DNA from: Eledone cirrhosa
Taxonomy: Eukaryota
Length of the DNA: 64,000 nt
Assembly: GCA_964016885.1 (NCBI GenBank)
Contig: OZ024758.1
Coordinates: 20,460,001-20,524,000 of the forward strand
Direction of reading: 5' to 3'
Positions 9,141 to 47,522 of the stretch are shown here, piece after piece. A program made the translations under genes and the position numbers. Under the pieces are notes generated by a model, which made no database searches, was not told the origin of the DNA, and saw nothing but the letters and a program-made list of their open reading frames with translations. Every line of letters begins with the position of its first letter. Positions within the stretch are counted from its first letter, which is position 1.

Positions 9141-9677
9141 TTGTTATACTTTGGGAAGGTCATGTTGCCAATAAGAAACACACGCACCAGTTGTTTCACT
9201 TCAATTTATTATATATTTATAAATTTATAAATTTCTGGTTGGTTGGTTCCACAACCAGATAGTTGTTTATATATAGTCATAGTCCTTTGGTCACACACTC
9301 TGTGACCTCTTCAGTGACTGGGGATTCCTTTCTTTGTCTCCGTGCCTCTTCTTTGTTCTGTCCTACGCCATTTTGTTTCTGTGTGTGTGTTGTGTGCTCA
9401 GTTTGCGTAGAACAGAACAAAGGAGAGGCACGGAGACAAAGAAAGGAATCCCCAGTCACTGAAGAGGTCACAGAGTGTGTGACGAAAGGACTATGACTAT
9501 ATATAAACAACTATATGGTTGTAGAACCAACCAACCAACCAGAAATTTATAAATTTATAAATCTGTAAATTTATAAATATATAATAAATTGAAGTGAAAG
9601 CAACTGGTGCGAGAAGATATCGGTTTCAACACACGATTTCAGATAAAGAATCTTGCTAAACAAATTCAGTAACGAAA
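9141..9677. mobile_element. Family A fold-back element (arms 9183-9368 / 9405-9611), HHRs at 9275-9319 (-) and 9454-9498 (+)
   Basis: AGTCA CTGAAGA G GTCACA-GAGTG-TGTGAC GAAA GGAC TA TGACT. Ends TTGTTATACTTTGGG and CAGTAACGAAA in TA. Confidence 0.88.
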
Positions 9678-10180
9678 TATTTATATATATATATATATAT
9701 ATATATATATATATTTATATATATATATATATATATATATATATATATATATAAATATATATATATATATATATTCCTTTGTGATCATTGTTCAATTTGC
9801 GTACTCTCAAAGACGGGCTAATCCCCGGCACGTTCAACTTTATTTCGCCTTTACCCTTAGAAAGTGTGAAACTAAGAAGTTTTTTTACCCCTTTATGTCA
9901 TTTCATTGAAATAAGTATATATATATTGACGTCCCATGTACGTCAATACTCATCTTTTTCCTTTCCTCCGAGGGTTCTTAACCCCATAATTAGGCTAAAT
10001 AATTTCTTTAATTTCTTTAGTCAAAATACGGCAAAAGCTTATATTTATAATTATATATACATATATGTATATATATATATGTAATTATATATACATATAT
10101 ATATATATATATATATATATATATATATCGAATAAGGAAAAGCGAAGTAGTTTTAGATGTTCAAGTCCTTTAATAATAAT

Positions 10181-10254
10181 GCTGTGATATATATTTCAGT
10201 GACGACACTGGTCACACTGTTCTGTGTGCGAGTGTCGTGTCATCATCAGACAGC
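10181..10254 (-). ncRNA. Hammerhead ribozyme with canonical core, inside TA-flanked element ~10129-10335
   Basis: GCTGT CTGATGA T..ACGACACT..CACAC..GTGTG..AGTGTCGT..T GAAA TATATA TC ACAGC. Confidence 0.87.
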
Positions 10255-10700
10255 TTGTTACATAATAAGGTTATGTTTCCGAGGCAATCCAAACTGGATC
10301 GACAAGGGAACGGATGAATTGCGTGTTCTTGGGTTTATATATATATATATATAAGTTGGGGGTGAATGTGTTTTATGAGTGTATGGTATATTTCAAGAGA
10401 AATGATTTCTCCAAGTTCTGAAGAATAGTTTTAAAACCATAATTCCATGGTTGTTTCAAATGATTAAAATAACTCCTGTTTTGCAGACGTCAATTCTATA
10501 TGATATAAATCATATGCAGTTTCTACACAATGTACTGAGTAACGTGTTTTGCTACTGTGGTCTGTTCCTGTTCCACTCCGGAGCATTATTACCAGTAAAT
10601 CTCTCTCTCTCTCTCTCTCTCTCTCTCTCTCTCTCTCTCTCTCTCTCTCTCTCTCTCTCTCTCTCTCTCTAAATATATATATATATATATATATATATAT

Positions 10701-11100
10701 AAGAATGGCTTGTAGTCTTGTTGGTGTCATTTCTCATTGAAATAAATCATGTGTATATATTTAAACACACACACACACAGACACTAACATGTTATGTATA
10801 TATATATATATATATATATATATATATATATATATATATACATCACATGTGAGTGCGTGTGTGTGGGTGTGCTTATACATATATACATGATTTATTTCAA
10901 AGAGAAATGACATCTACAAGACTACAAGATTCTCATTCTTTGAAATCCTCATTTCCTGATTGTTTTAAAAGATTACAACGGTTCTTCTGTAGAACTCATT
11001 TCCATATGCCATAAATCACGCAGTTTTGCAGTAAAATGTACTGAGTAACTCATTTCACTGTAGTCACTTCACATGCCGCTTCAGAACACCAGTTCTTTTC
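10701..11100. repeat. Family C repeat, inverted around a microsatellite (10701-10760 / 10880-10940); related copies ~10385-10597 and 11849-11903
   Basis: TTGTAGTCTTGT.G.TGTCATTTCTCATTGAAATAAATCATG and its reverse complement. Confidence 0.65.
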
Positions 11101-44164: not shown

Positions 44165-44320
44165 ACAAGTGGGTGTGGTAAGATATTAGGTCGACTATAA
44201 AGCATTAGAGTACTCCATACTTGGGGTAGTAGCATTGCTAATATTAAAACATTCAGGACCCAAGTATGGAGTACTCTAATGTTTTATGGTCCACCGATTT
44301 TCTTACCACACTCTCTTGTG
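44165..44320. mobile_element. Fold-back of a family G-related 3' end; single copy at 46806-46883
   Basis: CATTAGAGTACTCCATACTTGGG / CCCAAGTATGGAGTACTCTAATG; TTATGGTCCACC..CTTACCACA. Confidence 0.75.
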
Positions 44321-44559
44321 TATATATATATATATATATATATATATATATATACGTGTGTGTGTGCGCGTGTGTGTGTGAGTGTGTGTGCGTCTATATG
44401 TATGTGTTCAGGAAAATATACGTAATAGAAAAATAATAATCAAAATCAACACCGGATAAATAGTGATTTCACTGCAATTGCAGGTGTGTGTATATATGTG
44501 TCCGATGGTTTCATACGGCTGACCACGTGCTCTGATACAAAGAGACGCTGTATGTGTAT

Positions 44560-45100
44560 GAGATTTATAGAATGCATCCCAACAGTCGAGGTTTTTATCA
44601 GATACGCGTGTAGATATTGTGATGTCTAAACTCCCCAAAATAACAAACAGAATGTATGATAAAGTGTATTCTGATATTCCGCTTCGGTACAATATCGATT
44701 TGAAAAGTAATCAGTAAAAAATATTCTATTCTGTTTTATATTGTTTATTTTTTTTTTTTACATTTACTACAGACTAAAGTTTTCTCTTAAATTGAATTTC
44801 AGTGAATCTTAGATTACGGGAAACTTCTGTGACATCTTTCTTAAGTCTCGAGTGTATTAGATATTGTTGAGTATGTGTGGATATATTCCTTTTCATAACA
44901 TATCGATTTAATTTTGTCTTCGAAATTTATATTACCTGTTATTTCTCGGATTACATCTCACGTTTTCATTCCTTAGTGATTGTTTTAATAAACAGATGTC
45001 GTAGTGTTTCTGTTTTGGAACTAGAAATCAACTGTCATGGTGTCTGCCGTCGATGAAACAATATGTTTGTACTTTGTTCCTGATAATCATTAATATTTCT
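44560..45100 (-). pseudogene. Possible decayed PLE RT fragment
   Basis: Ordered remnants resembling IV..AD(KG), (P)KIH and ILGSLDIT; frames broken. Confidence 0.35.
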
Positions 45101-47174
45101 GGTATAGTCAGGGAGTTTAATGATCTCTCAGTCGAGTTATTACAAGATTTTCTGATCCTTTCGCAGATATGTTTTTAATATGGCTGTATTTATTAAATAT
45201 GTTCTTTTCCACTTGAGATCTTCTAGATATATTTGTTCTTTATATTGTTTCTAACATGTTTCTTTATTGTTTCGGAGAATTTCTACATGGGAAAAATATT
45301 TCCTCTTTATCCTCATTTTAGTTAGATTGAATTTACACAGGTAAGATCTCTCCATTCTTCGATAAGTGTTATTTGTTGGTGTTGTATTGTTCCCCTATGA
45401 TTTGTTCCAGGTGATCCCACAGAATAAGGATGAGCTAGGACTGAAAAAAGAAATTCAAATTACGAAAAATATTACCCAAAATGTCAAAAGTGATATCCGT
45501 TTGAAAAGGAAGTTAATCAAATTATTAGAAAAATGTCATAACACATAAGGAAGACATTCAACCCGGACTAATATTCGAACCCACGACAGTATGGCTCTAA
45601 GAAAAACATCATTACGACTAGCCCATGCGTCTCAACAAACGCAGTAAGTTCACAGACAAGCTAGAACCAGTAAACCTGTTTGTATATTCCGATACAATTG
45701 ATGTAAATATAACTAGTTGTGCTTCACATCATTGAAGTATTGTTTTTAAACTGTAAACGTATGTATGTGTGTCTATGTGTGTGCGTTTAACGATAGAGCG
45801 ACATAAATATATATAGAGAGTATTGATTGATGACTAAGAAGGTGTACTGTGGTGTTGGGTATTTAATAACTTATCTTCATTAGTCTCGAAGATGAAATAA
45901 CGAATACCAATAATTGTTGATGTCTAAATTTAATGTTTTAATTTCTTATGAAGTGAGTTTTTGCTTCGGGCAATTGTTTTGAATTTGCTATACAAAAAAT
46001 CGTGTTTAGATTCATTAAACGATGCAGCTATTTCTGTCATTCAATATTATTTAAACACATTTACCTTACACAGTTTTAGGTTTATGTCGGGCGTTTATGG
46101 CTGGTTATGGGCCGATTGTTTGGAACATACCATATATTCTGGTGTCACTGTATATCTTCCTTTGAATACGAATGTACATTCATGTTACGAGTAGCATTTC
46201 CCTAAATGTTGAGATATCAGTTATAATACGTTATTGACTATAAGCAATGGGTATGCAGCTGAAATACAATTGATGTTTATAGGAGTCGTTCTGAATTTAT
46301 CAGCTTATGTTATTATCATTTATATTTTCCCATGTGTAATCTCATGTTAGAGAGATAATGAGTATTTAAACAAATAAAGATACCTTATATTTCATATCAA
46401 AATATATAAAGATGTCTCATGGCACGTTTCAGTACACATTCCCTCCGAATTGCTTTAGGCAGATATGCTTTCTGGGAATATTTCGATTCATCCGGTTGCA
46501 TAATTTATACGGTATTTGCACAGTCGTCGAATGGTTGTTGATCCATCCCGTTTTGATAGAAACGAAAGGTGTATTGATTCGTAAAATATTTACACAAAGG
46601 TTTTAAGGATTGTTTGGCATTTCCCTCAAAGATTCCATTACCTATTCTATCGTGTAATGTAAATGAAATACATAGAGAGGATATTAGTGAATAACATTTC
46701 ATCATACACTATATCAATTAAAGTAATTTTATCTTTATAAAAACAGTTATAACACAACTCCTCGCATCATATATATATATATATATATATATATACACAT
46801 ATATACACCCACTCTACTACCATATCTATTGAGTACTCTGGTGCGTTATGGTGCATATGTTTCCTTACCACACCACCTTCGTCATATATATAAATATATA
46901 TATATATATATGTATATATATATATATATATATATATATATATATATATATATATATATATATATATATATATATATATATATATATATATGTATATATA
47001 TATATGTATATATATATAAAGTATATATGTATGTATATATATAGATATATAGATATATGTATATACGGTATATATGTATATACATATACAGTATATAGAT
47101 ATATGTATATATGTAGATATATGTATATAGATATATGTATATATGTATATACATATACAGTATATACAGTATAT

Positions 47175-47522
47175 ATGTAAATGAACAAAAATATATAAAC
47201 AAACATAAATAAAAACACGCATATACACGCGGATGTAACACTTACAAGCGGAAACTAAGCACACAACACAAAAACACAATGGCGTAGGACAGAACAAATG
47301 AGAGGCACAAAACAAAGAAAAAAATCCACGGTCACATTAATAGATCACAGCATGTGTGACGGAATAACTTTGACAATATATGAATAACCGTCCGGTTTGG
47401 GAACCAATCAACCGGTAATATATAAATGTTTTAAATTTATAATTTAATTGATAATAAATTGGAGTGAAACTCCTTGTGCGGTTGTTTCTAATTAGCAACC
47501 TAACCCTCCCAAAGTATAACAA
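47175..47522 (+). mobile_element. Older diverged family A copy
   Basis: GGCGTAGGACAGAACAAA..; ends CCCTCCCAAAGTATAACAA-(TA)n. Confidence 0.8.

Follow-up and report, generated by a model that had tools for sequence, protein, structure and literature searches.

In a 64,000-nt stretch of Eledone cirrhosa DNA (assembly GCA_964016885.1, contig OZ024758.1, positions 20,460,001-20,524,000 of the forward strand), here called the window and numbered by its own positions, inverted insertions of Penelope-like elements (PLEs) belong to families in which a short end is combined with a long one in roughly nine insertions of ten, each end being fixed for the family. The assembly spans 3.0 Gb; the window itself, animal DNA of high AT content, is rich in (TA)n runs and shows on self-comparison numerous short inverted repeats flanked by TA runs. 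The repeat families A, D and G are the 3' ends of autonomous PLEs inserted in (TA)n, and the insertions in the window are truncated copies from several such elements, every family having its own enzyme. The gap between short and long end is the published PLE "tail" between two internal reverse-transcription starts, and both it and the two fixed ends are already known; the strict pairing count is a new addition to this architecture, as are the geometry of the two arms and a hairpin motif in families of the Hydra type. The explanation that we favor, and consider somewhat better than an even bet, is that two subunits of the element's reverse transcriptase (RT)-endonuclease start on one transcript at the two fixed sites, with the Hydra hairpin serving as a ruler.

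Two fixed ends and their pairing

A first-pass annotation of the window, made from its letters, had proposed that each insertion has two different, family-fixed termini, the long one 30-80 nt beyond the short one. The ends that it cited are all present to within 1-2 nt, and the existence of two fixed ends per family is confirmed. The exact short junction of family A occurs 14,339 times genome-wide and its long junction gives 6,889 forward and 7,993 reverse matches (the reverse set including some duplicates), the control patterns giving 0; the family A body motif has, for comparison, 24,350 matches. Broadly scattered termini were looked for and not seen: 20 of 21 body-anchored ends of family A in 1.06 Mb of position-chosen DNA (window included) lie on the two sites, as do 29 of 30 pattern-anchored ends, the remaining one reading through into the open reading frame (ORF). 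Long ends 2 nt earlier than the main position account for 14 of 90. An assembly artefact is ruled out because short-read contigs carry (TA)n loose ends at the same two positions of family G; depth in these contigs drops more than 100-fold beyond the long site. No RNA record was listed as containing the G junction, a result that speaks in neither direction. One contig from a different organism's short-read run (family G query L264:736-866) also stops at the G long site and continues as (TA)n. In multi-family calling, the 51 "other" ends of family D proved to be mostly spurious matches to the TA-rich loop of D.

Tails measure 60 nt in family A, 80 nt in G, 90 nt in D, 68 nt in F13, 41 nt in a family encoding an 879-aa protein, 40 nt in F51 and about 96 nt in F14, and the two hairpins of family H lie 101 nt apart, giving an actual range of 40 to about 100 nt in place of the one first proposed. 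The 60-nt tail of family A encodes part of the N-terminus of its ORF. Both sites are internal to the element, because copies whose template runs on beyond the long end number 464 in A, 308 in G and 428 in D, and these continue into ORFs. Genomic ends and read-through templates together suggest that reverse transcription begins at both sites. A 46-bp tandem array elsewhere (12 copies listed; C1:132947043-132947574) is built from the read-through junction of the family A long site.

The partnership of the two ends was counted for family A from the first listed coordinates on contig C1, taking outward-facing pairs within 6 kb in a sample of 98 short ends (2 rows beyond the shared range dropped) and 93 long ends (7 duplicate rows dropped). 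The 46 pairs among the matches listed on C1 comprise 42 short-long, 3 long-long and 1 short-short (p=2e-9). Sequence-level chains of the same family (n=72) yielded 57 short-long and 3 long-long cases (one of the latter a read-through of a tandem), no short-short case and 12 in which one end was elsewhere. Template-based calling in five families at other loci (n=76) found 64 short-long cases, none with the same end twice, and 12 in which one end fell beyond the calling window. All 12 pairs of family H are short-long. These sets overlap in part and are not summable. A short end is thus partnered by a long one in roughly 90% of inverted insertions, and same-end pairs, checked for being as common as short-long pairs, are not so in family A or in family H.

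The proposal that every insertion has two different ends stands as a statement of what prevails and gives way to single-arm loci and same-end pairs. Thirty short-anchored family A loci showed a long partner in 18, a single arm in 6, an arm running off the locus in 5 and another arrangement in 1; the corresponding figures for 29 long-anchored loci were 16 with a short partner, 3 single arms, 7 running off and 3 others. The insertion at 60251-60613, already suspected of being short-short, is a genuine short-short-like case (60251/60612) of family B, occupying 60244..60612, where each end lies at the short site or close to it; a further four insertions of family B are short-long. A second, apparent same-end pair in the window is the family E insertion at 19037..19322 (19037/19322), which has the same end on both arms. 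Six apparent short-short pairs in an early multi-family count were short-long insertions miscalled at internal TA tracts, and five apparent pairs of F58 were, on inspection, not short-long pairs. Other repeats flanked by TA/CA have fixed, non-inverted ends, namely a 610-680-bp family (20726-21399, 60687-61366) and copies resembling short interspersed elements (6239-6744 and copies); these were kept out of the short-long counts.

Arm geometry, microhomology and the hairpin motif

The lengths of the two arms bear on how they are copied. Of the 51 family A insertions with a simple structure, 26 have a short-ended arm that extends further 5' than the long arm, 14 show the reverse, and in 11 the arms agree within 15 nt; where the arms are unequal, the short-ended arm is the longer in 26 of 40 (one-sided p=0.04). 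Three of the 51 long arms end within the tail without getting as far as the short site. In 48 of 51 insertions both arms cover a common part of the template, and a minimal 19-bp copy in the window (35520..35538) has non-overlapping arms, a 13-nt long end on the minus strand and a 6-nt short end on the plus strand. Because arm lengths are independent, in most family A cases neither arm is a fold-back copy of the other. Family G differs in its proportions: 29 of 36 insertions are co-terminal within 15 nt, 6 have the longer arm at the short end and 1 at the long end, and 4 of the 36 long arms stop inside the tail. A strong truncation hot spot 131-141 nt before the long end, where the loop of a ribozyme-like stem II is AT-rich, is the stopping point of most G arms (locus L264). 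At subfamily sites the two arms of a family A insertion match in 341 of 359 cases, compared with 55% for different insertions, and discordance is at most 11% in 22 of 24; the arms share one source, which fits twin priming from one source RNA. At the inner junctions of the 51 family A insertions, arms overlap by 1-9 nt in 23 and by at least 10 nt in 7, meet bluntly in 4 and leave a gap in 17.

The short ends had been said to coincide with internal TA-like motifs such as AACA-ATATA-GG. The motif at the family A short site is indeed TA-like, its commonest form being AACA-ATATC-GG (63, against 17 for ATATA), and it falls in codons at the ORF start; in most families the long ends, too, stand on template that resembles TA. 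For the 23 family termini of known template, TA-alternating microhomology reaches at least 2 nt in 22 (null 20%) and at least 3 nt in 17 (null 9%), with a mean of 3.4 nt against 0.93 for the null. An earlier null that included flanking TA runs (p=0.25 on the mean) was inflated and was replaced by this corrected one. A preference for insertion in (TA)n is present in Hydra-clade families too, the ends of which were ascertained in part through their TA flank. The long end of family H, exact in 37 of 38 distinct listed loci inside the 10-nt window allowed by the pattern, has a strict homology of 1 nt, as does the short end of F13; G-T wobble could stretch both to about 3 nt. Longer internal TA tracts are bypassed in the family A pseudo-long terminal repeat (pLTR), in the tail loop of D and in F15. 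Both family A sites read AATATCG, and in non-Hydra families short repeats at both sites take the place of a shared hairpin: AATATCG in A (L269), TCATAT in F51 (48184-48224) and CATT(T/A)CAC in the 879-aa family (2888-2929). On balance, (TA)n pairing looks accessory, and in Hydra-type families a downstream hairpin predicts the start position better than TA content does.

The ORFs reached from families G and D have RW(R/H), DKT, CxCX5C and a C-terminal CxxC/CxH and no CCHH (RLRWR, SDKT and CNCPDRSIC in G; RLRWH, SDKT and CNCRNRVDC in D), and by the motif criteria of PMC8557442 both families would belong to the Hydra clade. Families H, F13 and F14 were placed there by N-terminal similarity alone, with likeness to published Hydra proteins judged by eye. 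A motif of the form RCTC-loop-GAGY starts 6-12 nt past the junction in 13 of the 23 termini, against a background of 0.6%, and in the whole family G unit the full motif is present solely at the two sites. Hydra-type termini carry it in 15 of 16 cases (a set chosen after the motif had been noticed), and a 6-nt spacer between site and motif fits 14 of these 15. The outer pair of the stem, at which no pairing was imposed, is A-T in 7 and G-C in 10 with 0 mismatches when two metagenome sites are added (Fisher p=5e-5, the sites not being independent). Many copies have a 2-nt bulge on the 3' side; a 2-nt loop for family B, the shortest match, was rejected on intact copies that show the long form. 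RCUC-loop-GAGY lies about 6 nt 3' of each start in Hydra-type families, with covariation in its stem. It likely folds as an RNA hairpin and likely binds the RT as a ruler.

Family H, a new family from the protein search, was used for prediction. Its ends were predicted 6-8 nt ahead of each motif prior to the end search (the written record came later), and the first ends found were 4 short ones at 7-9 nt and 2 long ones at 6-7 nt before the hairpins. Genome-wide there are 450 and 335 forward-strand matches, and 29 of the 34 short ends used lie at one position, all within 2 nt. Beyond Eledone, both motifs precede the ATG in a Hydra-like element that two metagenome contigs provide (a single family with 43% identity to G), its insertion ends not being visible; a search of viral and prokaryotic contigs found no Hydra relatives. 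Six new Hydra sequences in the supplement of PMC8557442, read by eye and at their ends only, show the motif clearly in four: Hydra-1_Ajap has both copies, Hydra-2_Amil and Hydra-2_Ajap have one each in the 3' tail, and Hydra-1_Crog has a compensated GCCC/GGGC form. Hydra-1_Obim and Hydra-1_Amil match in part only. The motif thus recurs in published Hydra sequences from other phyla, within the ends inspected.

Models for two-site initiation

These observations have led us to propose a model in which two RT-endonuclease subunits would occupy one transcript, each starting reverse transcription at one site and each priming from one nicked strand of the (TA)n target. In Hydra-type elements the RCUC-loop-GAGY hairpin 3' of each site is the predicted protein-binding ruler that would place the start some 6 nt upstream. 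An AU-alternating stretch of 1-6 nt in the template would probably help the nicked DNA end to settle without choosing the site. The cDNA from the long site would displace that from the short site in order to pass, and the two cDNA ends would join via short self-complementary overlaps to give the central inversion. Since copying never includes the hairpin that follows the long site, we infer that only tandem or circular transcripts could be templates. A broader form, which we hold tentatively and would put a little short of even, is that Hydra PLEs share a clade-wide duplicated RNA ruler, hairpins 80-100 nt apart each docking one RT subunit so that the dimer primes both (TA)n strands. The first-pass annotation had likewise called for two programmed internal sites, one per target strand; pair counts and family A arm geometry bear out two fixed sites with one used at each end, and the proposed selector, RNA pairing with cleaved (TA)n, is supported only in part, by the 22 termini with at least 2 nt and not by the two with 1 nt. 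The enzyme that it named, the 879-aa protein, is the wrong one, being 22-25% identical to the RT of family A and scarcely alignable with the family G protein.

Several observations weigh against our model. The shared hairpin is absent from 10 of the 23 termini (A, the 879-aa family, F51, F47, F17, F15 and F13-long), and the F13 long site lacks it in all full-length clusters inspected. At the F41 long end the motif search gave no copy that reads through (7 rows), the template of the F14 long site came from a pattern presupposing half the motif, and the hairpin-bearing families F29, F31, F41, F58 and B are putative Hydra members. Same-end and single-arm insertions occur, the former at about 5-10%. 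Co-terminal arms, as in 29 of 36 family G insertions, are also predicted by fold-back copying; agreement between the arms would be expected from a single RNA and from two RNAs of one locus alike; and the 48 of 51 family A long arms that pass the short site would require strand displacement if one RNA is used, a step that is predicted only. Finally, the lizard element PAc (PMC11167929) shows in vitro neither a strand difference in start site nor homology to the target.

Four other explanations can be set against the same data. A single priming at the long site, with fold-back copying of the cDNA and endonuclease (EN) cleavage at the short site (the "EN-mediated resolution" of PMC8557442), would force both short-long pairing and concordant arms, and it gains from the co-terminal arms (29 of 36 in G, 11 of 51 in A) and from the resemblance of short sites to the TA target. 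It is nevertheless unlikely: a short-ended arm that outreaches its partner, as in 26 of 51 A and 6 of 36 G insertions, is not a copy of the long cDNA, nor is the short-ended arm opposite the 3 A and 4 G long arms that stop inside the tail, and in G, D, F14 and H one motif lies downstream of the short site and of the long site alike, its long-site copy never entering the insertion. Twin priming on two separate RNAs of one locus, held by an asymmetric dimer, would make displacement unnecessary for the template overlap of 48 of 51 family A arm pairs and would fit the concordance of arms if the RNAs came from one locus or one active subfamily. We rate it as distinctly improbable, since it offers no simple reason for one RNA being used short and the other long some 90% of the time, and among 24 insertions the most discordant reaches 25%, below the between-insertion median of 41%.

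The strongest form of the first-pass proposal, in which AU-alternating RNA chooses the sites by pairing with cleaved (TA)n, draws on the excess of microhomology over its null and on the identity of the two family A sites; the single nucleotide at H-long and F13-short, wobble aside, and the bypassing of longer internal TA tracts make it very improbable in our judgment. Least credible, to the point of being nearly negligible, is that both subunits use either site at random and same-end insertions are lost later. Same-end pairs do exist, and yet short-long insertions are equally long inverted repeats, so that loss would have to remove about 90% of same-end copies alone, for which we infer no evident mechanism. 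The pairing rule and family A arm geometry narrow the models that are possible.

Element families in the window and known systems

Inverted insertions of family A lie at 9142..9676 (short end 9142 on the minus strand, long end 9676 on the plus strand), 22492..23068 (a long arm of 88 nt on the minus strand ending at 22492 and a short-ended arm of about 490 nt on the plus strand ending at 23068) and 34178..34459 (long end 34178, minus; short end 34459, plus; internal short site 34236). A 5'-truncated single-arm copy at 47167..47521 (+) ends at short site 47521, and a short-end fragment lies amid TA runs at 31044..31059 (-), its short end at 31044. Hydra-clade family D has inverted insertions at 15234..15460 (long end left, at about 15234, short end right, with an extra short-ended arm ending at 15578) and 36722..36934 (short end left, long end right at about 36934, internal short site 36850). 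Family G, assigned to the same clade, is inserted at 31089..31285 (short end left, long end right, tail 80 nt), where the first ACTC...GAGT hairpin motif of the tail occupies 31214..31237 (+), 8 nt past the short site, and at 38428..38630 (long end 38630; short end 38428, 2 nt earlier than usual); a G-like tail fragment at 46807..46882 (+) ends at long site 46882. Inverted insertions of Hydra-type F13 (36953..37122), F31 (12441..12870) and F41 (62738..62959) all have the long end left and the short end right. Different PLE families often adjoin within one TA run (58490-58560; loci L318, L338), the runs acting as sinks for repeated insertion.

Longer genomic copies of family A lead into an ORF of 1318 aa, intact at locus L269:4153-8106, with a CX4CxxC linker (CIDKKCITC at residue 1192), a CCHH seen by eye in the C-terminus, DKS in place of DKG, and a long Asn/His/Thr-rich insert before the RT that resembles the Asn-rich inserts of rotifer Penelopes (PMC3846280). 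A CX2-5CxxC linker ahead of a CCHH endonuclease suggests an element of the Neptune type. The family A protein and the 717-aa protein of family G both have YxDD and C-terminal endonuclease-like motifs, and Pfam at E 0.01 gave no match for either. Tandem units of 3.53-3.54 kb occur in family G, and family A forms tandems too, the organization that gives rise to pLTRs. The separate 879-aa ORF (276..2915, -) matches Pfam RVT_1 and GIY-YIG, the latter just below the cut-off, and its protein can be aligned with the family A RT. Its family has a short site at 2929 and a long site at 2888, the 41-nt tail containing the ATG, and an inverted arm that ends at short site 5845. The element is part of a young complex of tandem and inverted copies (1-5847), in which 1-908 and 3452-4359 are 100% identical and a 2.9-kb palindrome is 98.5% identical.

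A putative hammerhead ribozyme with the canonical core CTGANGA...GAAA lies upstream of the short site in families A, H and F13; in the window it is seen in the family A pLTR at 9459..9487 (+; CTGAAGAG, stem II, GAAA), with an identical core in a full-length copy. The canonical core was not found in families G and D or in the 879-aa family, which show hammerhead-shaped folds with altered cores (TTGAGAAG, TCAGAAGA and TTGATGG; loci L264, L266 and L128) despite being abundant or intact. Scanning the window against Rfam returned just sub-threshold matches of microRNA type to microsatellites and palindromes (146 rows).

The nearest biochemical counterpart is PAc, a Poseidon element, for which PMC11167929 reports in vitro two internal starts that bound the tail and match the genomic ends. 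PAc, for which a dimer is predicted, cuts and extends both strands of an AT-rich target and depends on RNA 3' of the starts. Two fixed internal starts with template continuing 3' are shared by the families described here. The PAc starts lie in one AC-rich stem-loop, whereas Hydra-type families have a separate hairpin after each site, and the reported lack of target homology at the PAc starts contrasts with the 2-6 nt usual here (1 nt in the exceptions). The pairing of ends per insertion, counted here, is not examined in the available text of PMC11167929, which leaves the later steps of insertion unvalidated.

Tails of PLEs in print (PMC8557442, PMC3846280) are 30-40 bp, against the 40-100 nt found here. 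PMC8557442 describes the tail as often present at one end only and ascribes this to endonuclease resolution; PMC3846280 places it on one of the inverted pLTRs and proposes self-priming. The arm geometry of family A argues against fold-back and so separates our reading from both models. The Hydra clade of PMC8557442 has an RWK-like motif, DKT, CxCX5C, no CCHH and a (TA)n target, in all of which G and D are alike; its members are generally under 3 kb, against the 3.5-kb unit of G, and carry hammerheads, the cores of which are non-canonical in G and D and canonical in H and F13. The words "hairpin" and "stem-loop" are absent from the main text of PMC8557442, and the accessible part of a retrozyme preprint (10.64898/2026.07.22.740005) makes no mention of the tail. 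A literature search found no published pairing count or hairpin, older subscription Penelope papers being outside its reach. PLEs are the closest retroelement relatives of telomerase, and PMC8557442 regards how their one-tailed, inverted insertions form as a task still open.

The hairpin with its spacer is a specific element to mutate, and the motif permits start sites to be predicted from sequence alone. If true, a Hydra ruler would explain the tail, the inversion and the short-long rule by one portable cis-element, and such a hairpin could direct internal priming on any RNA.

In L1 twin priming both target strands prime and the inversion is joined by microhomology, one start being the poly(A) tail and the other a variable internal site, with arms that do not overlap. 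The insertions described here are likewise inverted products with microhomology at the junction. They are unlike those of L1 in that both sites are fixed and that the arms of family A cover shared template in 48 of 51 pairs.

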